DNA from: an uncultured Bacilli bacterium
Lineage (GTDB): Bacteria; Bacillota_I; Bacilli_A; RF39; UBA660
NCBI GenBank assembly: GCA_944332725.1
Contig: CALVKO010000002.1
Location: 1-52,319 of the forward strand
Length of the DNA: 52,319 bases
Reading direction: 5' to 3'
Translations under genes and position numbers: made by a program
The notes under the pieces: model-generated
What the model saw: the letters and a program-made list of their open reading frames with translations, nothing else
Database searches by the model: none
Told to the model about the DNA's origin: nothing
Shown: in pieces, positions 4,995 through 49,855 of the stretch
Layout: the number at the start of each line of letters is the position of its first letter
How positions within the stretch are numbered: the first letter of the stretch is position 1

Positions 4995-5876
4995 TTAAAC
5001 TAATTCATATTCCTTTGATATAATTCTTTTATCACTACAATATTCCATAATAAATTTATTATCTTTTTTACATATAATTATTCCAATTGTTTTATCTTGT
5101 GTTATTTTTTTTATTGTTTTATCGATATAATTCATATATACTTCTATTTGTCCTATATATTCTTTTTTTAGTTCTGTTATTTTTAATTCTACTACTACAT
5201 AACAATTAAATTCGATGTTATATAATAATAAATCTATATAATTATATCTATTTCCTATTTTTATTTTATATTCATTAGCTATATAACTAAAATTATTACC
5301 AAGTTCTAATAAAAAATTATCTATATCTTCTAATATTAATTGTTTTAATATTTTTTCTGATATTTCTTCATAATTATGACTATTTTTAATCAATATAGGA
5401 TTCTTAATCATATCTGTTATTTCAAATTTTTCTTCAACAATTATTTTTAATTTTGTTTTGTTATCTAATCTTTCATATTCTTTGTTTTTTATTTTTTCTC
5501 GTAATTGTCTAACTGATAAATTATTTTGTTCTGTTATCTTAATATAATAATTTATTTGATCATCTTCAAGCCAAATTATTTCACAATAGTGTGAGAACGT
5601 CAATTTATCCGACATTGTCGGACATTTTGAAAAAAATTCATAAAATTTTCTAAAATACCTTAATCTAGTTTGAGTAAAGCCTTTACCAAACTCATTAGTT
5701 AACTTAATAGAATATTCTTTTATTATTCCTTCACCATAATGTTTTCCGGCTTCTTTTAATAATTTTCCTACATTGTAATATGTATCTAAATCACTTTTAT
5801 TTTTACTATAATCTTTTACTTTTTTAGTTATTTCATTATTTATTATTTGTTCTTTTATTTCGTTATAATAATTCAT
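4995..5876 (-). CDS. PD-(D/E)XK nuclease, YhcG/DUF1016-like (intact copy)
   Basis: N-terminus MNYYNEIKEQI...YYNVGKLLKEAGKHYGEGIIKEYS and C-terminal nuclease core YIDLLLYNIEFNCYVVVELK. Start taken at MNYYNE. Confidence 0.75.
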   Translation of the reverse strand: MNYYNEIKEQIINNEITKKVKDYSKNKSDLDTYYNVGKLLKEAGKHYGEGIIKEYSIKLTNEFGKGFTQTRLRYFRKFYEFFSKCPTMSDKLTFSHYCEIIWLEDDQINYYIKITEQNNLSVRQLREKIKNKEYERLDNKTKLKIIVEEKFEITDMIKNPILIKNSHNYEEISEKILKQLILEDIDNFLLELGNNFSYIANEYKIKIGNRYNYIDLLLYNIEFNCYVVVELKITELKKEYIGQIEVYMNYIDKTIKKITQDKTIGIIICKKDNKFIMEYCSDKRIISKEYELV

Positions 5877-5887
5877 AACCACTCCTT

Positions 5888-6454
5888 TTATTGTACACAT
5901 TTTTTAATTTCTATTTCTTTTTTTAGTTTAAATCTAATACTACCATTAATATCAGTTCTGTAAATAATACTATCTTTTAAATTATCCAACACTTCAGTGT
6001 TAGGATGACCATACCAATTATTTTTACCAACTGATATAGCTGAATATTTTGGATTGATTTTGTTTATAAAAACTTCACTACTACTCGTTTTACTTCCGTG
6101 ATGCCCAACTTTTAGTATATCTATGTTACTTAAATTATAATTATTTAATATATTCTTTTCTACCTCTATTCCAGCATCACCCATTAATAGTGATTTAATA
6201 CCATTTATTTTGAAATAAATTACACTTGAATTATCGTTTTCATTAGTATATAAGGAATTATTTAAAAAATATAATTTGTTATTATATATATTTAATTGTT
6301 TTAAGCCTTTAAAATAATTAATGTTTTTAAATTCTAATACTTCAATTAAACTAAGTTCTAAATCATTATAATTGTTATGATTAAATATAACATTATCTAT
6401 TTTAAAATCATTAATTAAATTAATACTTTCACCCATATGATCATAATCACCATG
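5888..6454 (-). pseudogene. Detached 3' fragment of comEC (metallo-beta-lactamase domain only)
   Basis: About 60% aa identity to the C-terminus of the full comEC (GDAG..E..., VGHHGSKTSS, YGHPN, YRTD.NGS). A 21-nt identical run at 6434-6454 equals 8615-8635, after which the similarity stops. No 5' part of the gene is present. Confidence 0.8.
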
Positions 6455-6551: not shown

Positions 6552-7121
6552 ATGTATTTATTAATAATGCTAATACCAATATTAATAATATATCCGTTTT
6601 TCATTTCTAAATATATAGATAAACATACAATAACTAAAGAACCAAGCATAAAGCAAATAACAAAAAATATGGGCCTAATATCCTTGATATCTATAATATC
6701 TATAATTGTCATTAGTTATTTATTGAATATATATTATAGTTTAATACCAAGTTCAACTTCTAGCTTATGTACAAACACTGGTGGTTGGACCTATTCTTGC
6801 CAAGGAGACACACATACCGCCCCAATATTGCTAGCTGCAATAGGCCTAGTAATAATTACTTATCATTTTCTTTCACAAAAATTCGTATATAAAATCTTTG
6901 AATATAGTAAGGGAGTTTTTAAATACATTTATATGTATATCCATATGTTTATTATATATTTCTTAAATTTTTGGCTTTTATTGTACTTATATGGTTTATT
7001 TATTTCAGTACACTATGACTCAGTACTAATTGAACTATTAAGATTTTTCGTATTTATTTCTCCAACTTGCCTCTTTATTATTTCAACATTAATATATGTG
7101 CATAAAAACAAGAACAACTAA
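6552..7121 (+). CDS. Polytopic membrane protein, unknown function
   Basis: AGGAGGTG RBS, several hydrophobic helices, and a Cys-containing loop CTNTGGWTYSCQGDTH. Ends inside a terminator hairpin. Confidence 0.55.
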   Translation: MYLLIMLIPILIIYPFFISKYIDKHTITKEPSIKQITKNMGLISLISIISIIVISYLLNIYYSLIPSSTSSLCTNTGGWTYSCQGDTHTAPILLAAIGLVIITYHFLSQKFVYKIFEYSKGVFKYIYMYIHMFIIYFLNFWLLLYLYGLFISVHYDSVLIELLRFFVFISPTCLFIISTLIYVHKNKNN

Positions 7122-7135: not shown

Positions 7136-8023
7136 ACACTAATTCATATTCTCTAACTGCAATTCTTTCATCTGAACAATATTCTATTACAAACTTGTTT
7201 TCTCTTTTACATATCAAGATTCCCATTGTATTGTTATTACTTACTTGTTTGATATTCTTATCAATATAATTCATATACTTCTGAACTTGTGAAATATATT
7301 CTACTTTAAACTCAGTTACTTTTAGTCAACAGCGACATAGCAATTGTATTTTATATTAAATAATAACAAATCAATATAATGGTTTCTATCACCTATTTTA
7401 ATTTTGTATTCACTACCAATAAAACTATATGAATCACCAAGTTCTTTCATAAATGATTCAATATCTTCCAAAATCAACTTTTGTAAAACCTTCTCAGATA
7501 TAATTTCATAATTATTACTATTTTTAATTATTATTGGATTAGGTACTAAATCTTTTATTTCGATTTTATCTTGGATTTTAAGTTTGGTTTTAGTATCTTC
7601 TGGCAGTCTTTCATATTCTTTAGCTTTTATTTTCTCTTGTAATTGTCTTTGAGTTAGATTATTATTTTTAGATATATTTATATAATATAGTATTTCATCA
7701 TAATCATCTAATGGTAATAAAAGTAAATAATGTGACCAAGTTAATTGTGTCAACATTGTTGTCACTTTTTTATTACTAAATACACTATAGAATTGCTTCA
7801 TCCTAAATAAAGTTCTTCTATTATATTGTTTACCTACTTCAATAACTAATTTTTTAGAATATTCATCTATAATATTATCCCCATATTTGCCACCAGCTTC
7901 ATTTAATAATTTACCTATCTCAAAATATGTGATTCCTTTCTGTCTTTCTTTTGAATAATCTTTTACTCTTGAATATATTTCGTTATCTATTAATCTATTC
8001 TTTATCTCATTATAATAATTCAT
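7134..8023 (-). pseudogene. YhcG/DUF1016-like PD-(D/E)XK nuclease, frameshifted copy
   Basis: The ORF stops at ...NCYVAVD* (7322). The homologous C-terminus LKVTEFKVEYISQVQKYMNYIDK...EYCSDERIAVREYELV continues in another frame to the stop at 7134. Consistent with a 1-nt deletion near 7325. Confidence 0.75.
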
Positions 8024-8065
8024 ATTTACTCCTTTCATAATTATGTCGCCAGTGGTGACACTTTT

Positions 8066-10771: not shown

Positions 10772-11824
10772 AAATCCTCTATTTCTTAAGAATGATGGCA
10801 CATCAGCATCATCTGAATCATCAGTATCCTCATTTTTATTATAACTTTGAGTATTATATGAATGAAGCGCTGGTTTTTCATCTTCAAAACCGGTAGCAAT
10901 TACAGTAACAATCAATTCATCATTTAAATTTTCATTAATTACGGCCCCAAAAATTGTATTGATATCTGTATTAGCACTTTGTCTAATGACTTCTGCTGCT
11001 TCTTCTACTTCAAATAAAGTTAAATTAGCACCGCCAGTTACATTAATAATAGCATCTGTTGCTCCACTAATACTAGTTTCTAATAATGGACTTGATACGG
11101 CTTGTAAGGCTGCTTCAGTGGCTCTACCTTCGCCAACACCCATACCAATACCGATTAAAGCGTTACCTCTTTTTTCCATAACGGCTTTAACATCAGCAAA
11201 GTCCAAGTTAATTAATCCAGCAACAGCAATCAAATCACTGATTGATTGAACACCTCTTCTTAAAACATTATCAACTTCTTTAAATGAGTCTAATAAAGGC
11301 GTTGTTTTATCAATAATTTCTCTTAATCGATCATTAGGTATTACAATCAAAGTATCCACGTGTTTCTTTAATTCCTCTAAACCAGTTATGGCTTGTTGCA
11401 TTCTTTTTCTACCTTCAAAAGTAAATGGTTTTGTAACGATACCAACAGTTAGTGCTCCTAAACTTTGCGCAATATCAGCAATAACTGGAGCAGCACCGGT
11501 ACCAGTTCCACCACCCATGCCGCAAGTAACAAATACCATATCGGCGCCTTTTAAGGCTTCTTCAATATCGTTTTTACTTTCTAAAGCAGCTTCTTTACCA
11601 ATTTGGGGATTAGCACCAGCCCCTAACCCATTAGTTAAATCTGTACCAATTTGTATTTTAATCGGCGCCTTAGAATTTTTTAAAACTTGTAAATCAGTAT
11701 TAGCAACGATAAATTCGACACCTTTTACTCCTGATTCAATCATACGGTTGACAGCATTATTACCACCGCCACCAACTCCGATAACTTTTATATTAGCTAA
11801 TTGATCCATTTCTAATCCAAACAT
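10769..11824 (-). CDS. ftsZ: Cell division GTPase FtsZ
   Basis: [17 protein letters not shown] and the tubulin signature [24 protein letters not shown]. Confidence 0.97.
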
Positions 11825-11836
11825 GTATATCCTCCC

Positions 11837-13072
11837 TTATTCGCCAAAGAAATATCCAAATACTTTACCTAACATCGAATCATTTGTGTTCTTTCTAGGT
11901 GTTGATAAAACTTCCATTTCATCATTACTTATCATTGAATAATCTTTTCCTTTTAGTTTAAGTTTATTTACAAAATAAATTATGTTACCAATTGCAGAAG
12001 AAAACTTATTGTTTCTTAAACCAATTAGATTAACACTTCCTATTATAGCACATTTTCCTAATTTTTCTCTACAAATTTGTTGAAAATTAATCATATTTGT
12101 AATTCCGCCAGTTATAAAGATAAAATTTGGTTTATGTGAAGTTAATGTATTTAATTCTTGATTAACTAAAGACAGAATTTCATCAAGTCGAGAAATTACT
12201 ATTTCACTTAATTCATATTGATTAATTTTAATAATTTCGCCATCTTTATTCTTAGCCTCTTTAAATTCATTTAAAGACGAACTACTCTTTTGAGTAAGCG
12301 CAAATTTTTCTTTTAATTCTCTTGAAGTTTCCATATTAACTTTATACATATAAGCAATATCGTGATCAACACTTTTACTTCCCATATTAACAATACCATG
12401 TTTTACAATTATACCTTTATTATATAAAGATACTTCTGTTTTTTCTGACCCAATATTTACAACTGCACTTATTGTATTAACAACATTATCATCCATAAAT
12501 GTATTGATATCTCCAATTGCCCCAAAAGATATATCGATAACTTCAATACCTAAAGCGTTCAATAAATTAACAACCGAATATATATTTTTTCTAGGCGCAG
12601 TAGCAAGTATTCCTCTTGTTTTTAAAACTGTACTAACCTTACCTAAAGGTTCAGTTGTAACTTCATTATCTAATCCAAAATCTATAGGAATTATTGTTAC
12701 CATTTCTTTGGTATCATCAAGATGATTTTTCATAGCTGTCTGTAACACTTTAACAATATCTTCTCCAGTTATTTTTTCACCTTTAATATCTATTTCACCT
12801 TTTATCATCGTAAATTCTGCAAAGTAACTAGGAATTATCGCAATAACTTTTTTTATTTTAAAACCAAGCATCGATTCAATTTGTTCAAAGCCTTTTTTAA
12901 CACAGTTTTTAGCCTCATTAACATCGGTAATCAATCCCTTTTTAATTCCTTTAGATTTGATAGTAGCTGTCGCTAAAAGATTATATCGTTCGTGATATAA
13001 TTCACATACAACTATTTTAATACTATCAGAACCAATATCTATGCAAGAATAAATATGTCGCAATATACTCAC
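11837..13072 (-). CDS. ftsA: Cell division protein FtsA
   Basis: Actin-like ATPase (CIDIGSDSIKIVV, ITGGITNM) located upstream of ftsZ. The start is GTG at 13072 or TTG at 13063. Confidence 0.9.
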   Translation of the reverse strand: MSILRHIYSCIDIGSDSIKIVVCELYHERYNLLATATIKSKGIKKGLITDVNEAKNCVKKGFEQIESMLGFKIKKVIAIIPSYFAEFTMIKGEIDIKGEKITGEDIVKVLQTAMKNHLDDTKEMVTIIPIDFGLDNEVTTEPLGKVSTVLKTRGILATAPRKNIYSVVNLLNALGIEVIDISFGAIGDINTFMDDNVVNTISAVVNIGSEKTEVSLYNKGIIVKHGIVNMGSKSVDHDIAYMYKVNMETSRELKEKFALTQKSSSSLNEFKEAKNKDGEIIKINQYELSEIVISRLDEILSLVNQELNTLTSHKPNFIFITGGITNMINFQQICREKLGKCAIIGSVNLIGLRNNKFSSAIGNIIYFVNKLKLKGKDYSMISNDEMEVLSTPRKNTNDSMLGKVFGYFFGE

Positions 13073-16318: not shown

Positions 16319-18593
16319 AGTATATTTTTATGACATCTGCTATATTATCTTTTTTTATTTTATGAGTAGCAATTAAGAATGATAAATAAACAATTACTAT
16401 TACACCTACGATACAAATTAATAATGGCGTTAAATAAATATTTAATGGTATTTTTAATAAATTTTCAAAAGTATCATTATTAATCATCGTTATTTTAATA
16501 AATATACTTACAATTAATATAAATAATAAAATACCAAATAATAAAGATTTTAAACTCAACATTAGACTTTCATAAAAAATCATTTTATTAAATTGTTTAT
16601 TAGATAAACCTATACTTTTTAAAATAGCAAATTCTTTTCTTCTTAAATTTAAACTTGCACTTATTGTACCAATAATACTAAAAATTGTTATGAATGTAAT
16701 AAAACCTAAAGCAAGATAAATAACTAATTTCACACAATTAATTAAAACAATACTATTATGATTTATAACATAAGTATTAGTGTAATAAATACTATCACTT
16801 TCAATAATTGGTGTAATTTCTTGATCTAATTTTAAATAATCATTTGTTCTTATATAAATATTAATCGTGTTATCTATATTTTCATCATATTTACCAATTA
16901 TTGTTGGCATACTAAAACTTTTAAAAATATCACTATATTCTGTAGTTAAGAAACTAATATCATTAATTGTATTTAAAATAAGAGACTCTTTTATTTCATC
17001 AGTTTCATAATCTAATAAATCTAAAGTAACAACTTCATCATCAAATACTGATTGTCCGTGAAATAACGTATTTACTAATAAATTATCAGTTTTATAATGA
17101 TTAATTATTTTATTGTAATTATCTTCATCAACATAAAAGTAAATAAGATAATTACTGATAAGATTATTAAAATTATTTTTTGTTTCAAATTTATAAATAC
17201 TATCGGTATAATAAACGATTTCAGAAACTGAATCTAAATTTTTAATACTATTTATTATTTCTTCTTTAGTGTTATTCTTTAAATCACTTGGTCTAAAATT
17301 AACCCTAATAAATTCATCATATTTATTTTTATCGACATCATATAATAATATCGATAACAAAGTAGTGGCCACTAAAAATAAAATAATTCCTATTACAACC
17401 GATATAGTCGTTATCCGATATTTAGCCCTATCTCGTGTCACATTATTAGCCGATATTAAACACTCAATTCCTAATAATTTTTTAATTAATTTATTTGATT
17501 TACGATATTTAAACTTTTTAGTTTGTTTAACTTCATCGATAATATTTATTTTACTTGCTATTCTAGCCACTGAAAAAGTCGCAAATAAAGTACTTAATAA
17601 AATAAATATTAAAGAAATAAATATAAATAATGGATATATTTCTAATGTGAAAACATTGGATATAATACCTTCTAATAAATTATTTATGATAAATAAAATT
17701 AATGATACAAAACCTAAACTTAATAAAAATCCTAATGGTATAGCTATAATTAAAACAATTAATGATTCTAGAAATACTGCATATAATATTTGTTTAGGAG
17801 TAGCTCCAATACTTTTATACATTGCATATTTCTTTTTCTTTTCATTAACTGATATTGAAAATGCATTATAAATTATAAAGAAAATTATAAAGGCTAATAT
17901 TAAACAAATAAACATCGTTAATAACATATACACTTGATTTTCTGGTGAATCATCTGATTTATCTAGATAATTTATCAATGCTTCATTTTTATGCAGTGAA
18001 GCAATTTCAAATTTACTAACTAACAAATCCAAATCTAAATTCATATCATTATAAGAATTTAAATAGATAAAAAACATCGCATAATTATCATTTTCCGTAT
18101 CTTTAGTTAAAATAATATTATCTAAAGTAAAATTTAAAAAACTTTTTTGATATATTCCTACTACTTTATAATCCTTATCATTTAAGTTTAAATTTGACCC
18201 TATTTTTAGTTTTAAACTATCAGCATACATCGAATCAATAAGTACTTCGGTATTATTAGTAGGCATACTACCTTCTATTTTCATATCAAAATTATCACTA
18301 ATACCATATAAATTATCTTCTATTTGATATATATAATAATATTTTTTAACTATATCATTTTCTAAATTACTTTTTTCACTTACTTTACCATGATCTATAA
18401 TTGCGTGAAAATCACCAAAATCATCAATTATACTATTAATTTGATTTTGTCTTACAGTCGAAAAAGCCAAGCCAACAGTAAAAAGTAAGATACAAGATAA
18501 TAAAACACTTACAAAACATAATATAAATATTTTCTTATCTTTTACTAATTCCTTTAATGTTAACTTGGTCATTATTTTCATATCATTCACCAT
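16317..18593 (-). CDS. ABC transporter permease, FtsX/MacB type with two FtsX modules
   Basis: Two 4-TM modules, each preceded by a large extracytoplasmic domain. FtsX-type loops KKKYAMYKSIGATPKQI and RRKEFAILKSIGLSNKQF. No ATPase gene is adjacent. Confidence 0.8.
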   Translation of the reverse strand: MVNDMKIMTKLTLKELVKDKKIFILCFVSVLLSCILLFTVGLAFSTVRQNQINSIIDDFGDFHAIIDHGKVSEKSNLENDIVKKYYYIYQIEDNLYGISDNFDMKIEGSMPTNNTEVLIDSMYADSLKLKIGSNLNLNDKDYKVVGIYQKSFLNFTLDNIILTKDTENDNYAMFFIYLNSYNDMNLDLDLLVSKFEIASLHKNEALINYLDKSDDSPENQVYMLLTMFICLILAFIIFFIIYNAFSISVNEKKKKYAMYKSIGATPKQILYAVFLESLIVLIIAIPLGFLLSLGFVSLILFIINNLLEGIISNVFTLEIYPLFIFISLIFILLSTLFATFSVARIASKINIIDEVKQTKKFKYRKSNKLIKKLLGIECLISANNVTRDRAKYRITTISVVIGIILFLVATTLLSILLYDVDKNKYDEFIRVNFRPSDLKNNTKEEIINSIKNLDSVSEIVYYTDSIYKFETKNNFNNLISNYLIYFYVDEDNYNKIINHYKTDNLLVNTLFHGQSVFDDEVVTLDLLDYETDEIKESLILNTINDISFLTTEYSDIFKSFSMPTIIGKYDENIDNTINIYIRTNDYLKLDQEITPIIESDSIYYTNTYVINHNSIVLINCVKLVIYLALGFITFITIFSIIGTISASLNLRRKEFAILKSIGLSNKQFNKMIFYESLMLSLKSLLFGILLFILIVSIFIKITMINNDTFENLLKIPLNIYLTPLLICIVGVIVIVYLSFLIATHKIKKDNIADVIKIY

Positions 18594-18628
18594 ATTAATT
18601 ATATAATATTTATTTTAATTTGACAATA

Positions 18629-20569
18629 TTAATATATATCAGTTAAATATTTCATTATTTTTTTATATTCGCTTGAATCATTTTCACTACTAATTAAATC
18701 TAAACATTTATTATATTCTTTCAAATACTTCTTACTAATATTTGAAGGTCTATCATCTTGTATTCTTGCTTTTAATTCTTTTAAACTTTCTATTTCTGAC
18801 TTTGATTTATCTACTGAAATAGTTCCAGCACTGCTAATAACCATGTCATATTCTTGTGAGTCAACTATATATCTTTCGACGCTAAATTTTAATTCATATA
18901 ACTGTTTTAATATCATAACTTCAAGAATTAAATTTTCACTTGTTAAACCTATTTCACTGCTAAGATTTTTAACTATTTCACTTGTATTTCTATTACTTAA
19001 AATACCATTCCAATAACACAATATAAAAATTATTTTATTACTTACGATTTCTTTAATTGTAGAATCTAAAATATTGTTTCCTAACAATTGATTTATTTCT
19101 TTTATTAATTCAATTATAGAGCCCTTTTCAGCTATTTCTTTACCATTTATAACTTTAGCACCATTAAAAAGCTGATTATATATTTTTTTATTTTTTGAAT
19201 TAAATGGAACTATTTTATTTAATCTTTCTAAAATTGAATGTAATTCTTTACGAAAATTTAATTCAATTTCATCTGATGATAGACCATCAAACTCATTTTC
19301 TTTTAATTTCAAAATATTTTCCTTTAATATGTCTATATAGCTTTCTTTTAATTTTTGATATTCACTATTTAATTCATCTTTTGATTTACCTATTAATTCT
19401 GAAAAAATATCTTCTAATTCTCTTAATTCTTTTGATAAAGATATTCCATTTTCATGTTCTTCTAATGCTTTTAATAAATTTAAATATGGTTTTAATTTAT
19501 CATTTAAACCTATTACTTCATTATATATATTATTTAATTCTTCTTTAAAATAAGTTTCAATATCATATTTTTTTAATGTTAAATTAATTACATATTCGTC
19601 ATCTAAATTTTCTAATATACTTTTTTTTATTTTTTCAAATAATTCACTTAATTTATCTATATATTTAGTTTCACCTATTGATTTTGACAAATTAATTATA
19701 TCTTTTATTTTTAAAAATGTTTCATCATTTTCAATGTTTATTTCTTTACCTAATAAAAATTGTTGGTATTGATTAATTTTCTCACTTAAATTTATTATTT
19801 TGCCTTTAGTATTTAAATTTTGAATAATCATTTCTAAAGAAAATATCAAATTATTTCTTAATGCTTTAGGAGAAGTATCTTCAATTGTTAAACTTGAATT
19901 ATTATCCATATTAAATTGTGGTTTAGATTTTTCTAATTTTGTTTGATATTCATTTATTAAAGATTCAATTTTATCTATAATTACTTGTTTAGATTTATTA
20001 TCCAATAATTCAATCATACTATATATTTTTGATAATAATTCATTTACTTCATTATCTATATTTTCTGTATTTGTTTCATGATTTATAAATTCATCTAAGT
20101 TGATATTTTGTAAAACATTAATGTTAATTTTCGAATATTTGGATGAAATATATTTTATTTTTAATTTTTCAATTAAATTTAATTTATCATTTACAATATT
20201 AATTTCTTTAATACCTAAAAAATGATCAAATTTATACTGTCCACTAGTAACTCGTTTAAACAAGATGAATAAAAATTTATAATCACAATCAATTATTGTT
20301 ATTTTTTTTATATTTCCGCCAAAACAAAAACTACAAAATTCAGCTCCATTATTATAAAATATTACCTCTGTTAACGGATTCAAATGAAAAGCACCTGCAT
20401 CTATTTTTTTTATACTTTTAGGAAGATATAACTTTTTTATATTATTTCTTCTAAATGCACCTCGGCCAATATAAAGTATTCCTTCTTCTAAAATTAAATT
20501 TTCTATATCTTGCCCATCATATTTATAATCACTAATTGCATTCTCCTTTACAACTAAAGTCTTTCCCAT
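18629..20569 (-). CDS. Hypothetical protein: N-terminal BspA-type leucine-rich repeats plus a long helical/coiled-coil region
   Basis: LRR-like LILEEGILYIGRGAFRRNNIKKLYLPKSIKKIDAGAFHLNPLTEVIF, followed by about 480 aa of K/E/L/N-rich helical sequence. No signal peptide. Start taken at MGKTLVV, which follows AGGGTGA. Confidence 0.55.
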   Translation of the reverse strand: MGKTLVVKENAISDYKYDGQDIENLILEEGILYIGRGAFRRNNIKKLYLPKSIKKIDAGAFHLNPLTEVIFYNNGAEFCSFCFGGNIKKITIIDCDYKFLFILFKRVTSGQYKFDHFLGIKEINIVNDKLNLIEKLKIKYISSKYSKININVLQNINLDEFINHETNTENIDNEVNELLSKIYSMIELLDNKSKQVIIDKIESLINEYQTKLEKSKPQFNMDNNSSLTIEDTSPKALRNNLIFSLEMIIQNLNTKGKIINLSEKINQYQQFLLGKEINIENDETFLKIKDIINLSKSIGETKYIDKLSELFEKIKKSILENLDDEYVINLTLKKYDIETYFKEELNNIYNEVIGLNDKLKPYLNLLKALEEHENGISLSKELRELEDIFSELIGKSKDELNSEYQKLKESYIDILKENILKLKENEFDGLSSDEIELNFRKELHSILERLNKIVPFNSKNKKIYNQLFNGAKVINGKEIAEKGSIIELIKEINQLLGNNILDSTIKEIVSNKIIFILCYWNGILSNRNTSEIVKNLSSEIGLTSENLILEVMILKQLYELKFSVERYIVDSQEYDMVISSAGTISVDKSKSEIESLKELKARIQDDRPSNISKKYLKEYNKCLDLISSENDSSEYKKIMKYLTDIY

Positions 20570-23479: not shown

Positions 23480-23499
23480 AAGATAGAAATTTCTATCTT
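23480..23499. repeat. Perfect 20-bp palindrome just upstream of recD2
   Basis: AAGATAGAAATTTCTATCTT. On the minus strand it is followed by TTTTTTGATATAAT, that is, a T-run and a -10-like TATAAT. Confidence 0.7.
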
Positions 23500-23582
23500 G
23501 TAAATGTTAAAATGAAAACTGATAAAAATGTTTGTAAATGTTAAAATATATAAATGTTAAAATAAAAATTGATAAAAATGTT
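23500..23582. repeat. Short direct-repeat array
   Basis: The 32-bp unit TAAATGTTAAAAT-n6-TGATAAAAATGTT occurs at 23501-23532 and 23551-23582 with 2 mismatches. An extra GTAAATGTTAAAAT lies at 23534-23547. Confidence 0.75.
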
Positions 23583-23605
23583 AAAGTTAAAAAGTCATAA
23601 ATTTA

Positions 23606-23650
23606 ACACCAGTATTAGATATTCAATCGAATACTGGTGTCTTTATTTGT
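23606..23650. terminator. Strong hairpin, terminator-like
   Basis: An 11-bp stem ACACCAGTATT/AATACTGGTGT, a 13-nt loop, then CTTTATTTGT. Confidence 0.55.
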
Positions 23651-23771
23651 TCTACTTTCTTTTAGCAATGTAACACCACTATTGTTAGGAGCTTGTCAAG
23701 TATAGTGTGTAAATTTATTTAATAATTATAAAAATTAATATATAAAATTGTCAAAGAGCATAGTTAACATA

Positions 23772-25013
23772 TCAATCTAAATTGATATGTTTTTCATATC
23801 TATCACCAAATAACTCTATAAGTTGTAATTGTATAGTTTTAAAATTCATAATAGGTTTATACCATTTTTCTTTTAATTCTTTTATTCTTAAGAATAGTAT
23901 TTTATAAACTGATTCTTCATTAGGAAATGCCCCTTTCCCTCTAGTTACTTTTCTTAATGCAGAATTTACTGATTCTACAGCATTTGATGTATATATGGCC
24001 TTTCTAATTTCTGTAGGTAATTCAAATAATGGATCTAAATATTGCATAAAATTTTCAACTTTTTTAACTACTGAATTAAGACTAGAGAATTCTTTTTTAA
24101 AATCTTCTAGTATTAAATATGCTTTTTCTTTATCAGAACTTGTATATATTTTTTTCCAGAATTGAATAACCTTATTTGCTTGCTTTTTAGGACATATACT
24201 ATATATATTTCTAGTCAAATGTACAACACATCTTTGGGATTGAGTTTTAGGAAATACAAGTTCTAAAGAGCCTTTAAATCCTGCTATCCCATCACTAGAC
24301 ATATATAATATATCTTCAACACCTCTTGATTTCAAATCTTCAAATACATTAGTCCAAAAACTAGCAGATTCATTTTTATCAATCCACATACCTAATATAT
24401 CTTTGTATCCTTGAGCATCTACTCCTATGATTACATAAATGGCTTTTTTTTGACTGTTTATATTATCGCCTTTAATTGGAATATATAAACAATCAGCATA
24501 AGTAAAAATGTAAAGAGGTTTTAGTTTTCTATTTCTAAACTTTTCAACTTCTTCATTAACAGCAGAAATTAATCTCGTTATTTCATCTTTACCAATATTA
24601 ACACCATAAAGATCTTTTAATATTTTCTCAATATCTCTTAAACTAACGCCTTTAGCATATAAAGAAATACATTTATCTTCAAAACCAGTAAGTTTAGTTT
24701 GTCCTTTTTCTATTATAGCAGGCTTAAAACTACCTTTTCTATCACGTGGAGTTTTTACTTCAATAGAACCATATTTAGTTTCAACTTGCTTACTTTTACA
24801 ATAACCATTTCTACTATTATCACTTTTATTACGTTCATATTTAGAATATTCTAAATGATTATCTAATTCAGTATCAAGTAGTTTTTGCATAAGAGGTTCT
24901 AATAAAGAGTCAATAAAATTTTCAACATCCAAACTATTTTTAATTTCTCCATTTTTAAATTTATTAACTGCTTCTTCTATAATCATATCATTTAAAGTTT
25001 TCTCTTTTTTCAT
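23772..25013 (-). CDS. IS256/Mutator-family transposase
   Basis: Core motifs FTYADCLYIP, YMSSDGIAGF and YTSNAVESVNSALRKVTR. Length of 413 aa is typical. Confidence 0.9.
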   Translation of the reverse strand: MKKEKTLNDMIIEEAVNKFKNGEIKNSLDVENFIDSLLEPLMQKLLDTELDNHLEYSKYERNKSDNSRNGYCKSKQVETKYGSIEVKTPRDRKGSFKPAIIEKGQTKLTGFEDKCISLYAKGVSLRDIEKILKDLYGVNIGKDEITRLISAVNEEVEKFRNRKLKPLYIFTYADCLYIPIKGDNINSQKKAIYVIIGVDAQGYKDILGMWIDKNESASFWTNVFEDLKSRGVEDILYMSSDGIAGFKGSLELVFPKTQSQRCVVHLTRNIYSICPKKQANKVIQFWKKIYTSSDKEKAYLILEDFKKEFSSLNSVVKKVENFMQYLDPLFELPTEIRKAIYTSNAVESVNSALRKVTRGKGAFPNEESVYKILFLRIKELKEKWYKPIMNFKTIQLQLIELFGDRYEKHINLD

Positions 25014-25024
25014 AATACTGCTCC

Positions 25025-25795
25025 TTAAATTAATTCTAAATCTGGATAAAGTTGAATAATATCATTTAGCATTAGAATCCATTCATTCTTTTTAAATGAA
25101 GTAAAGCCAAAATAATCATCCATACCACCAAGTTTTTCATAAACTTCTTCTAAATTATTAACATAACTTTTTTGACTGTTAAAACTTAATCTTATTCTAT
25201 CATATAAATATATATTAGCGGAATGCCTAAATAATAATTTTCTAATATTAACACTATATTTGTATAAAGATTCGATATTAGTTAAATACTTTTCAATTAA
25301 TTTTTGATGAATAACATTATTGTATCTTTCTTTAAATTTTTTAAATTGCTCTTTAAAGTCAGTTAAAGTTTTTTGTACATATAAATTATGAAGTTTACTA
25401 CCGATTTCTCTAGCATTTTTTTCATAAGAAAATTTATAAAACTTAGGCATAATATCAGTAATAGAATCTATAAAAGTTATAGTAGGGAATGAAACTTTAG
25501 CAGCCTTTTTAATATTTTTATTATCATCAACAGAAAGAAATAATATATTTTTAATACCTCTAACTTTTAAATTTTCAAAACAATCAAGCCAATATCTATT
25601 ATTATTTTTTCTATCAGTATAAACATTAATTAGAGTTCTAAAACCTTTTTTATCAATACCAACTAAAGTATAAATATCTTCTTTTTCTATATATTCACCT
25701 TTTTTAATATTTATTTCATTTTTAATAGCATAAACAACCAAATAAGTATCTTCTAATCTTCTTTTTGGACAATCTGTTATAGTTAATTCTTTCAT
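25025..25795 (-). CDS. Truncated, probably inactive paralog of the IS256 transposase core
   Basis: Aligns to the core of the downstream ORF (LVGIDKKGFRTLINVY...YWLDCFENLKVRGIKNILFLSVDD). The first Asp position reads AIK, and the Glu position reads HSANIYL rather than TSNAVES. Confidence 0.6.
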   Translation of the reverse strand: MKELTITDCPKRRLEDTYLVVYAIKNEINIKKGEYIEKEDIYTLVGIDKKGFRTLINVYTDRKNNNRYWLDCFENLKVRGIKNILFLSVDDNKNIKKAAKVSFPTITFIDSITDIMPKFYKFSYEKNAREIGSKLHNLYVQKTLTDFKEQFKKFKERYNNVIHQKLIEKYLTNIESLYKYSVNIRKLLFRHSANIYLYDRIRLSFNSQKSYVNNLEEVYEKLGGMDDYFGFTSFKKNEWILMLNDIIQLYPDLELI

Positions 25796-25965
25796 CTCTT
25801 ATCCTCTCCTTTTTTCCACAAATAAAAATCTAGTATGTTTTTTTATTTACACACTAGATTATACACTATCATTGTTAGTTATACTATCTTGCCCCTCTTT
25901 TGGCCACACGACTTCGCGTGCGGCTTATAAATCCCTTCGGGATTTTACGCAATTAGTATCTTTTG

Positions 25966-27120
25966 CTAACTTGCTCCAACGACATCGTCTGGGTTTACAT
26001 ACTCTAGGGCCTCTAATTTAGAAAGGATGTTAGATTCATAGATATGGATAACTGGGCGCACGCCAACGCTGCCAGAGTAAACCACGTCGTCGCGGATGAG
26101 GATGCCGCGGTCACTCACGTACCACGCGTAATCAGGGTCAGACACAACACTGTAATTCATTGGTGTTCTTGTCCAATATCCATATCCTGCACTGTTATCT
26201 CCTGTTGTTTCTAAATTTATTGTTGCCCATTCTGGTAATAAATACTTTTCTCCTCCTGCTGCTGTTATTGCTTCTCGACATTCGCTTCCACTACTACAAT
26301 TTTGAATGCTTTCATTTTCCATATATAACGTGTTAAACTCTGTTGAATATTCACTTTCCCAATTCGCTGTTTCTCCGCTTGACTCTAATTCTTTGTAATA
26401 TTCTGTTAGTTTCAACATTTCTTCTGCTTCTGGCATTTCTATTTTATTTACTTTATTCCAATTACTTGTTCTTTCATTCATTGCTGCTAATGCTGTTATT
26501 GGGCCAAATTCATATAAATTTTGATTTTTTACTTCATCTGAATCACTATTCCAATTGCCTCCGGCACTATTATAATCTGCTTCACTTATCCACGCTACTG
26601 TTACTCCTGGTAAATTTCTATCTAATATTCCTACTATTTCATCACCATTTACTTCTAATACATAGATATTTTGCGTTTCACTATCACTTACTTGGACTTT
26701 TAATAAATCTCCTACGGCATATTTTGCTTCTGGTTTATCTAAATCTCCTTCTACCATTGCATTATCTTGTAAACTATAGATATGTCCATTACTTTTTACT
26801 TTTAGCCAAGTTAATTTATCGCTATATTCTATTTCTATTACTTTCGCATTTCCTAAGTTGACCATTGTTGGTACATTTTCTTTTGTCATACTTGATGTAC
26901 ATATTTTTGTATAATTATTATCTAATTGATATTTTACATCTTCTGTTGCACAATAGTTATTTATTCCACTATATATCATATTTGCTTCGGATAATCCTGC
27001 ACTCTTTCTTGCATCTTCTACTACGTCTAATATTATTGGGGTTGCAATAAGGGCAACTATAGCAAGTATAATTATTACTGCTAATAATTCGATTAGCGTA
27101 AATCCTCGTTTTAAATTCAT
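25966..27120 (-). CDS. Type IV pilin-signal protein with a large C-terminal lectin-like/adhesin-like domain
   Basis: Prepilin cleavage/methylation motif MNLKRGFTLIELLAVIIILAIVALIA. C-terminal GYWTRTP...YAWYVSDRG...GSVGVRPVI resembles DUF1566/DUF6273-type domains (assignment from memory). Confidence 0.8.
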   Translation of the reverse strand: MNLKRGFTLIELLAVIIILAIVALIATPIILDVVEDARKSAGLSEANMIYSGINNYCATEDVKYQLDNNYTKICTSSMTKENVPTMVNLGNAKVIEIEYSDKLTWLKVKSNGHIYSLQDNAMVEGDLDKPEAKYAVGDLLKVQVSDSETQNIYVLEVNGDEIVGILDRNLPGVTVAWISEADYNSAGGNWNSDSDEVKNQNLYEFGPITALAAMNERTSNWNKVNKIEMPEAEEMLKLTEYYKELESSGETANWESEYSTEFNTLYMENESIQNCSSGSECREAITAAGGEKYLLPEWATINLETTGDNSAGYGYWTRTPMNYSVVSDPDYAWYVSDRGILIRDDVVYSGSVGVRPVIHIYESNILSKLEALEYVNPDDVVGAS

Positions 27121-49079: not shown

Positions 49080-49793
49080 TCATATCTTAAATATATTAGT
49101 GTATTTCTTTATAATTATTATCAAAATTAAACAAATCAAAAATACACTATAGTTAATTACAAAATTATTTTGAATTAAAATTGGCAAAAATAAAGTAGTT
49201 GTTATATTACTAGTCATATGTAATATAATTGGTGCTTTAATATTCTTATATTTTTCATAAACAAATATCAAAATAAAACCAATTGCTAAAGCATATAAAG
49301 TTTGAATTATATTAAAATGAATAATAGCAAAAAAAATCGTTGTTATTAATATTGCTTTCATATTTTTATATTTACTTTTTAATTCATTATAAATAATACC
49401 TCTAAACATTAATTCTTCAATAATTGGGCCTATTAATCCTGCAGATATTAATGTAATTATTAAATTATTATTATTGTCAAATAAAGATGTTTTTAATAAA
49501 AAATTAAGATAATAAGCAAAAATATTATAAATTAAACTTAATATAACTCCTAATATAATTAAATTAAAATAACTGATTTTAATTTTTTTATCATTTTGAT
49601 ATTTTTTATAATCTTTTATTAATAAAGGAATAAATATAATAGCAACAATCAAAATTATATATATTTGTTTAGTTTTCAAATATTCATTAAATAAATTTGT
49701 ATCATTACCATTCGTAATAAAATTATAGGCTAACAAAATTATTATAATAAATTGAAACAAAAAATATATTAATGGCCACTTTATAACTTTCAT
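49080..49793 (-). CDS. CPBP-family intramembrane glutamic endopeptidase (Abi/CAAX protease-like)
   Basis: GPIIEELMFRG, FAIIHF and HMTSN motifs in a polytopic protein. Start taken at MKVIKW. Confidence 0.8.
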   Translation of the reverse strand: MKVIKWPLIYFLFQFIIIILLAYNFITNGNDTNLFNEYLKTKQIYIILIVAIIFIPLLIKDYKKYQNDKKIKISYFNLIILGVILSLIYNIFAYYLNFLLKTSLFDNNNNLIITLISAGLIGPIIEELMFRGIIYNELKSKYKNMKAILITTIFFAIIHFNIIQTLYALAIGFILIFVYEKYKNIKAPIILHMTSNITTTLFLPILIQNNFVINYSVFLICLILIIIIKKYTNIFKI

Positions 49794-49855
49794 ATCATTC
49801 ACCATATTAATTATATAATAAATTAATAAATAAAACAATAAAAAAAGATTGTTTA

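Follow-up and report, generated by a model that had tools for sequence, protein, structure and literature searches.

We analysed a contig of 52,319 nucleotides from an uncultured Bacilli bacterium (CALVKO010000002.1; hereafter the window, by which we mean the whole stretch), in which a short G+C-rich patch occupies the 3' end of a gene for a type IV pilin-like protein. An earlier reading of the letters alone, called here the original prediction, had taken positions 25893-26160 for one patch, either replaced by DNA from a donor of much higher G+C content or subject to a special mutational regime. We argue that the core of the patch is very probably the variable repeat (VR) of a diversity-generating retroelement (DGR), whose template repeat (TR) and reverse transcriptase (RT) would lie elsewhere in the genome. 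The gene and the parts of the patch are listed below, with the evidence in brackets (ORF, open reading frame; UTR, untranslated region).

25966-27120, minus strand: predicted DGR target gene, coding for a 384-amino-acid type IV pilin-like protein with a variable C-terminal domain (ORF, Pfam N_methyl, TIGR02532)
26052-26151, minus strand: VR of 100 nt, AGTGTTGTGTCT...GGCGTGCGCCCAG, encoding SVVSDPDYAWYVSDRGILIRDDVVYSGSVGVRP (gap-free alignment to the TR of contig L038, column entropy, maximum of G+C and minimum of coding-strand A)
25966-26051, minus strand: invariant C-terminal tail, VIHIYESNILSKLEALEYVNPDDVVGAS and stop (conserved across paralogues; TR diverges from VR right after CGCCCAG)
25929-25945, minus strand: 3'-UTR hairpin 1, sense AAATCCC-GAAG-GGATTT (conserved downstream of paralogues at other loci)
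25903-25924, minus strand: 3'-UTR hairpin 2, sense GCCGCACG-CGAAGT-CGTGTGGC (pattern search, folding)
27043-27120, minus strand: prepilin-type signal and N-terminal hydrophobic helix, residues 1-26, MNLKRGFTLIELLAVIIILAIVALIA (Pfam, TIGR02532, pilin N-termini in PDB)
25969-26718, minus strand: C-terminal globular domain of 250 amino acids, with a predicted DUF6273-like fold and the VR near its end (AlphaFold and Foldseek)

A G+C-rich, A-poor island in an AT-rich contig

The counts behind the original prediction were accurate. Positions 26051-26150 hold exactly 61 G+C, which is the maximum among all 52,219 segments of 100 nt (starting at 26046; mean 23.7, standard deviation 6.3) in a window that is 23.7% G+C overall. 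Over the same positions the coding strand has 13 A (T on the plus strand), where about 14 had been announced. This is the minimum of the window (mean 41.5 per 100 nt, standard deviation 6.8), and only two segments have 13 A or fewer. The gene is an ORF of the predicted 384 codons with a prepilin N-terminal methylation motif, the hairpin strings were found as described (GCCACACGACTTCGCGTGCGGC at 25903-25924 and AAATCCCTTCGGGATTT at 25929-25945), and an IS256-like element lies 25-33 bp from hairpin 2, near the 35 bp or so first given. That the region is G+C-rich stands; that it is one patch does not. Its 268 bp are composite, made of the VR core (26052-26151, 100 nt, about 60% G+C), the invariant coding tail (25966-26051, about 40% G+C) and the 3'-UTR hairpins (about 45% G+C), which are three different things.

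Every homologue whose VR matches the TRs recovered from related contigs shows a G+C spike of 54-70% at the VR, and these paralogues and orthologues carry it in the same register in genomes of about 24% G+C. The orthologues P0072 and P0037 (here and below, P numbers denote proteins and L numbers contigs) share the scaffold and have no match to the recovered TRs; their VR region is 36-40% G+C and enriched in T, and P0072 is invariant in at least 80 contigs. This drop in G+C looks like decay under AT pressure. The TRs of L009/L032 and L038 contain about 30% A and are about 73-75% G+C at the other positions, compared with roughly 40% for the non-A positions of the genome on average. We attribute the 61% G+C and 13% A of the VR to the inheritance of the G/C/T scaffold of the TR together with changes of the TR adenines at many sites. 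Selection against new adenines explains only partly why the TR prefers AAC over AAT, and G or C at synonymous sites, in a genome of 24% G+C.

Two other G+C spikes, in L017 and L018, were considered as VR-like patches and proved to be tRNA genes. Separately, L029:16050-17794 reaches 71% G+C in 100-nt segments within a scaffold of 30% G+C, and may be foreign DNA or reflect a chimeric scaffold.

Variation falls on template adenines

The VR covers residues 324-357 of the 384, at the 3' end of the ORF. An alignment of 43 close homologues is conserved except for discrete positions between YWT and GVRPVIHI. Mean entropy was 2.83 bits for the 17 codons with a TR adenine at position 1 or 2, compared with 0.75 bits for the 16 others (P-value = 4.7e-6, Mann-Whitney test). 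The same contrast appeared at the nucleotide level, where 29 of 31 TR-adenine positions were variable versus 27 of 74 non-adenine positions (P-value = 2.6e-8).

Noncoding, AAC-rich TRs were found at L009:131-233 and L032:609-711, each about 190 nt upstream of a paralogous target; that of L009 reads AGTGTTGTGTCT AAC CCT GAT AAC GCG TGG AAC GTG AAT GAC AAC... In these cognate pairs all mismatches between TR and VR lie at TR adenines (19/19 in L009 and 21/21 in L032), with none at the roughly 72 other positions. The window VR aligns without gaps to the 100-nt TR of L038, the closest recovered, from which it differs at 17 of the 31 TR adenines; these account for 17 of the 25 mismatches, and 15 of the 21 mismatches to the L009 TR are likewise at adenines. 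The eight non-adenine mismatches to the L038 TR indicate that the true template is a close, unrecovered variant of it, which we predict to read AGTGTTGTGTCTAACCCTGATAACGCGTGGAACGTGAATGACAACGGCAACCTCAACAACGACAACGTGAATAACTCTGACAACGTTGGCGTGCGCCCAG. Homology between TR and VR stops at CGCCCAG (window position 26052), and the G+C-rich 3' end of the VR, GGCGTGCGCCCAG, is conserved in the TRs.

A relaxed blastn search of positions 25850-26260 against all 52 kb found no TR in the window. Scans with a TR pattern matched only the L009 contig among reference genomes and nothing in IMG/VR; in JGI metagenomes they returned no match and then a single unrelated TR-like segment. This isolated, noncoding segment (L039:11900-12030, minus strand, ...NSNGNLNNDNVNDTLGLRP...) belongs to an unrelated contig of a metagenome, and no RT occurs within 14.8 kb of it. 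A protein search with the antisense ORF that crosses the TR returned nothing.

Two paralogue VRs of one metagenome-assembled genome (MAG; BRZ_DM__bin25), at L009:1408-1508 and L010:6129-6227, measure 101 and 99 nt, lengths that put them out of frame. Either these are pseudogenes, or mixed VR populations gave an artefactual consensus.

Reverse transcriptase and Avd in related contigs

Pfam scans of 30 window ORFs for RT or for the accessory protein Avd revealed housekeeping genes only. Motif scans detected neither of the two in the window or at the target loci collected, about 12 of which had no RT, and none was found within 10 kb of eight target homologues (P0002, P0072, P0037, P0055, P0095, P0008, P0089 and P0102). 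A ninth homologue, P0014, is carried by the short contigs L032 and L033 in the order RT fragment, TR, target. Directly upstream of this TR is an RVT_1 ORF with IGNMTSQ and YMDD (HNIGNMTSQVFGIFYLNDLD...YYCRYMDDG), and a search with it returned a family of compact RTs. In L038, avd, RT and the 100-nt TR occur together. The avd-like ORF (590-913) is 47% identical to the Avd of L034, and the RT (L038:898-1971) spans its homologues from end to end but in three frames, with two 1-nt shifts that both fall in poly-A runs and could be assembly errors, decay or slippage-dependent expression.

The same RT family occurs in canonical cassettes of target-VR, TR, bAvd and RT in L034 and L037, where the RT ORFs are 284-301 amino acids long and bAvd matches Pfam PF22296 in both. 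The L034 Avd also matches NF033474 (E = 1.7e-16), under the curated cut-off of that model (60 versus 80 bits), and the C-terminus of the L034 target is homologous to the window protein. Since RT, Avd, TR and targets are all present in relatives, the system is an ordinary DGR in its parts.

Some further features of these cassettes concern their organisation. The RTs of L034:5774-6855 and L037:1572-2705 are called as an ORF of 57-66 amino acids and one of 284-301, the RT P0123 is split in all 18 contigs read, and the N-terminus that matches the short ORF is in one continuous frame in L038. RTs of the L034/L037 type may be naturally split or in need of recoding. Two direct repeats of 53 nt, 96% identical (L034:3039-3091 and 6872-6924), bracket the whole target-TR-avd-RT cassette, which suggests that the L034 DGR moved or inserted as a unit. 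In L037, two TRs with conserved flanks (905-1066 and 2774-2889) lie one on each side of avd-RT, and the target VR is closer to the second (75%) than to the first (68%).

A pilin-like protein with a variable C-terminal domain

The N-terminus of the target protein matches Pfam N_methyl (E = 1.7e-7), the TIGR02532 prepilin domain (E = 5e-8) and PDB pilin N-termini down to E = 7e-10, with weak matches to ComGC/GspG. It carries a class III signal, in which the leader MNLKRG would be cleaved off before FTLIELLAVIIILAIVALIA and the hydrophobic helix follows. Pfam scans of the window detected no prepilin peptidase, assembly platform or ATPase, only ComEA and ComEC. In L019 a target homologue directly follows T2SSF and Peptidase_A24 (prepilin peptidase) genes. 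We suppose the target protein to be exposed on a type IV pilus-like fibre.

The C-terminal 250 amino acids were modelled by AlphaFold with a pLDDT of 90.8. According to Foldseek, the model resembles phage DUF6273 proteins (E = 2.5e-5, probability 1.0) and the Thomasclavelia ramosa IgA peptidase 9qa6 (E = 9.7e-5), whose N-terminal domain is DUF6273 (PMC12402451). The predicted fold is therefore DUF6273-like, and DUF6273 is a published, C-type-lectin-like DGR target domain (PMC10743442). Direct matches to C-type lectin structures were weak (CD94, E about 0.5-1.4). The window protein falls below the Pfam DUF6273 threshold, and sister proteins of the pilin family match PF19789.

A database search retrieved more than 3,000 homologues of the target protein, the nearest from AT-rich Bacilli MAGs. 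At least five genes with the same type of VR lie on different contigs of a single related MAG. Across the proteins P0074-P0118, a conserved pilin N-terminal module of about 130 amino acids is fused to many unrelated C-terminal modules. Among them are other VR-like ends (WWLRS...GVAPAFRIG and YWTMTP...GLRPVIVIKSDV), and P0085 and P0095 have two VR-like domains each. DUF6273-type ends without a G+C spike occur in L029-L031.

A probable remote target of a DGR

We conclude, with a probability of about 0.9, that positions 26052-26151 of the minus strand are the VR of a remote, pilin-like DGR target gene, remote because the window holds neither TR nor RT. In the mechanism that we propose, a TR of about 100 nt, AAC-rich and G+C-rich at every non-adenine position, would be transcribed elsewhere in the genome. 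A compact DGR RT together with Avd would copy it into cDNA, misincorporating opposite template adenines, and the cDNA would then be substituted for the VR in the 3' end of the pilin-like gene. This would randomise about 17 codons of a lectin-like surface and leave the scaffold codons unchanged. The gene would be one of several dispersed paralogous remote targets; its tail and two downstream hairpins are not copied from the TR and are part of a 3' cassette common to all these targets. The window copy was presumably written by such a TR. One may go further and imagine that a single compact avd-RT-TR unit diversifies, in trans, pilin-anchored lectin-like adhesins dispersed over at least five loci per genome in gut Bacilli with small genomes, that it finds them through the twin hairpins with GAAG loops, unusually distant from each VR, and that poly-A frameshifts in the RT of L038 and IS256-like insertions in or beside the hairpins (window and L010/L025) are on/off switches of hypermutation and not decay. 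We consider this extension unlikely.

Several results weigh against the assignment of the patch to a DGR. None of TR, RT and Avd was detected in the 52-kb window, which is the whole contig, by blastn, motif scans or Pfam scans, and the cognate TR of the window VR was found neither there nor in reference genomes, IMG/VR or JGI metagenomes. The VR differs from the two closest TRs at 6-8 positions other than adenines, most of them synonymous third positions or at the 3' end. Every RT recovered beside a TR of this VR family is damaged: that of L009 is deleted, those of L032 and L033 are truncated at the 5' end, and that of L038 is frameshifted twice in poly-A runs; among 5.8 billion proteins no intact RT exceeds 62% identity to the remnants, and the best intact relatives are 55-62% identical. 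The hairpins start about 107 nt past the VR end and lie about 107-150 nt from it with GAAG loops, whereas those of phage DGRs have stems of 7-10 bp and 4-nt GRNA loops at 4-34 bp from the VR (PMC3240598). Finally, the window and L001 do not differ in the VR, and three clusters of homologues at 90% identity have no VR differences against 2-9 elsewhere; near-identical strains that share their VR thus give no sign of ongoing diversification.

The state of the RTs and the shared VRs also speak for the rival that survives best, namely that the VR was written by a past DGR now dead in the lineage and is a frozen, slowly decaying footprint. We rate this just short of an even chance. All four RT copies beside TRs of this VR family are defective and their closest intact relatives distant, yet the frameshifts of L038 could be errors, since they fall in poly-A runs and the assembly has low coverage and comes from a single run, and a contig that was not assembled or not binned could carry an intact RT. 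The window and L001 share one VR despite 33 differences elsewhere, and the three invariant clusters agree with this. On the other hand, in six 90% clusters 124 of 267 VR columns were variable, compared with 281 of 2,008 columns outside. VRs are out of frame in L009 and L010, insertions disrupt the 3' cassette both in the window and in L010/L025, and the VRs of more distant orthologues have decayed to 36-40% G+C. Set against these signs of decay, the cognate pairs show no non-adenine drift over about 72 positions, which makes the last homing recent on the scale of neutral drift, and the G+C spike persists in a genome under strong AT pressure. Because all RT copies are damaged and near-identical strains share their VR, present-day activity of the DGR is doubtful.

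Between the window and L001, 31 of the 33 differences are gathered in three short patches (L001:10518-10564, 11113-11160 and 12416-12725), which correspond to the middle of the target gene, the target tail with the start of the UTR, and the transposase of the insertion sequence (IS). Gene conversion between paralogous copies would account for this clustering better than point mutation.

One alternative in the original prediction was a horizontal mosaic, in which the C-terminal module and the 3' UTR recombined in from an organism of much higher G+C content. The abrupt step in composition, from about 30% to 61% G+C, and the mobile element that adjoins the patch would suit such an event, which we nevertheless hold to be very improbable. 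The spike is limited to the 100 nt homologous to the TR, with a tail of only 40% G+C, and it recurs in every TR-matching paralogue, at different chromosomal loci of relatives with genomes of about 24% G+C. The closest related sequences come from AT-rich Bacilli MAGs, a tblastn search of a phage collection with the C-terminal domain found no match, the differences track template adenines, and the IS, which has a target-site duplication of its own, entered the 3' cassette later. The donor is rather a TR, of which related genomes in the same low-G+C lineage contain examples, and only in a loose sense was the patch overwritten from a donor, through retrohoming of mutagenised cDNA and not through horizontal transfer. 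The alternative also raised at the time, a special mutational regime, has proved sound: an AAC-rich TR lies beside a DGR-type RT in related contigs, and cognate pairs differ only at TR adenines. The A-richer template of about 100 bp and the RT whose search had been suggested were found in those contigs, and neither is in the window.

Slightly less probable still is that constraint on amino acids or RNA structure alone, with no retroelement, forced the composition. The scaffold residues V, S, P, A, W, G and R do use G/C-rich codons, local stems are possible, and a scan called one terminator-like stem inside the VR. It had been foreseen that related orthologues might show the same composition from amino-acid constraint; instead, P0072 and P0037 encode the same scaffold at only 36-40% G+C, which rules out that constraint as the cause. 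Neither would constraint explain hypervariability at exactly the TR-adenine codons or the existence of the TR. An assembly chimera or sequencing artefact at the composition junctions can be dismissed: the contig is metagenomic, and assemblies are often broken or wrongly joined at repeats such as TR/VR pairs and IS copies, but L001, from another sample and another assembler run, matches it at 99.84% identity over 21 kb and shows no difference at either junction, the ORF is open through the patch, and dozens of homologues have the same architecture.

Tail, hairpins and the interrupted 3' cassette

The invariant tail begins where TR/VR homology ends, which gives it a position like that of the initiation of mutagenic homing site. 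Tail and 3' UTR are common to paralogues at different loci and lie outside the TR-homologous segment, without excess conservation (mean pairwise identity among paralogues 0.84, versus 0.85 for the gene body). The 96-nt 3' UTR folds at -29.2 kcal/mol (z = -3.9 versus shuffles), with hairpin stems of 7 and 8 bp and loops GAAG and CGAAGT. Compensatory changes were seen in 4 of the 15 pairs of the two hairpins among nine sequences, such as the variant AAATTCC/GGAATTT of hairpin 1 in L008. In 185,579 reference genomes the pattern of hairpin 2 occurs only downstream of these targets (seven loci in three MAGs), apart from one presumed chance match in a high-G+C Variovorax MAG, and the idea of a generic genome repeat was discarded. 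The hairpins are not classical intrinsic terminators either, as no T-run follows them and a terminator scan made no call. Rfam had no matches over the window at gathering thresholds. A role of the hairpins as a homing cis-element is plausible but unproven; the cassette may mark the homing site or stabilise the 3' end of the mRNA.

Downstream, the cassette is split by the IS256-like element:

23689-25870, minus strand: IS256-family insertion of 2,182 bp (Transposase_mut, E = 5.7e-99; inverted repeats; 8-bp target duplication)
23498-23688, minus strand: distal 3' cassette displaced by the IS, with a hairpin at 23606-23640 and TAAATGTTAAAAT-type repeats (matches to the intact cassettes of L009, L021, L006 and L014)

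The element has inverted repeats at about 23694-23714 and 25845-25865, and the target duplication ATTGTTAG is found at 23681-23688 and 25871-25878. It encodes a full (23772-25013) and a partial (25025-25795) Mutator-family transposase ORF, the extra partial one being atypical. The insertion point is defined because uninterrupted cassettes exist in L009, L021 and L006, and the element is a later insertion that split the conserved 3' cassette of the target. In a related MAG the same IS lies within hairpin 1 of a further target (L010 and L025, duplication AGGGATTT), so that copies occur in or beside the 3' hairpins of targets at two independent loci. A similar IS-like end abuts the TR cassette at L038:2240-2272. 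A possible insertion preference for such structured, G+C-rich sites is suggested.

An AT-rich motif (TAAATGTTAAAAT... or TTAAATTTATGACTTTTTAACTTT[A/G]ACATTT) follows the 3' cassettes of several targets (window 23498-23606, L009:19-77, L006:1406-1452 and L014:8828-8865). In L009 it takes the place of the RT gene upstream of the TR, and it may have been the recombination substrate that deleted that RT.

Comparison with known systems

The prototype DGR of the Bordetella phage BPP-1 (mtd VR, TR, avd, brt) shares several features with the system described here: a gene for a ligand-binding protein with a VR of about 100-130 nt in its 3' end, an AAC-rich TR with TR-to-VR differences at adenines only, here in the cognate pairs of relatives, a G+C-rich 3' end of the repeat with divergence of TR and VR immediately after, and Avd plus an RT with IGNxxSQ and YMDD, which here were seen in relatives. 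G+C-rich hairpins downstream of the VR, needed for BPP-1 retrohoming (PMC3240598), are a further likeness, although here there are two, at the distance and with the GAAG-containing loops given above. Unlike BPP-1, the present system is chromosomal and not phage-borne, its RT is compact, its gene order is avd-RT-TR-target, and the window target is remote from TR and RT, being one of at least five dispersed targets.

DUF6273 targets of gut phages and prophages (tentaclins and Faecalibacterium prophage targets) resemble the window protein in predicted fold, and those published carry the VR on the surface of their C-type-lectin-like domain. They differ in that the window protein has a type IV prepilin N-terminus as its anchor in place of phage tail or Ig domains, and in that its C-terminal domain was not matched by tblastn in the phage sequence collection. 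Cellular DGRs with multiple or remote targets are found in Treponema denticola, Legionella pneumophila, Trichodesmium and bacteria of the candidate phyla radiation. As in these, one TR/RT apparently serves several scattered VR genes whose products are surface-exposed or secreted; unlike them, the host is an uncultured gut Bacilli lineage with small genomes of about 24% G+C, the targets are pilin-like, and every recovered RT is defective. Remote targets are an acknowledged phenomenon that large surveys state they miss (PMC8144416).

The cassettes of L034 and L037 come from Hadza gut metagenomes, and their RTs (P0123 and P0128) are 55-62% identical to the RT remnant. Their TR ends resemble those of the window VR family (GGxGTTCGCCCA), and L037 also shares the TR flanks (TTATAGGG..AATGC upstream and TTTCTATAAAACT..GAAGATATAGAAAACAAG downstream). 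In contrast to the window, their targets adjoin TR, Avd and RT, the L034 target carries an ordinary signal peptide in place of the prepilin signal, and their downstream hairpins are not homologous to those of the window.

A known mechanism thus accounts for a striking compositional anomaly, and a sharp G+C-rich, A-poor island in an AT-rich genome can flag a DGR VR even when template and RT are distant. Type IV pilin-like proteins of uncultured, reduced-genome gut Bacilli would add a poorly documented class of targets; in a 2024 survey GspG-type pilin domains were only rare holders of VRs (PMC11661182). A lineage with many dispersed targets in which every recovered RT is damaged could serve as a natural example of DGR decay or switch-off.

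Other features of the window

Positions 18571-18637 and 49783-49849 were considered as a second, A-biased TR/VR pair. They turned out to be the near-identical upstream leader TATTATATAATTAATATGGTGAATGATATGAAA shared by two genes, probably a common promoter and ribosome-binding region. Two paralogues of the YhcG/DUF1016 PD-(D/E)XK nucleases lie close together at 4995-5900 and 7322-8038, and the nuclease domain of the second is truncated, with a match to profile positions 17-77 of 157.

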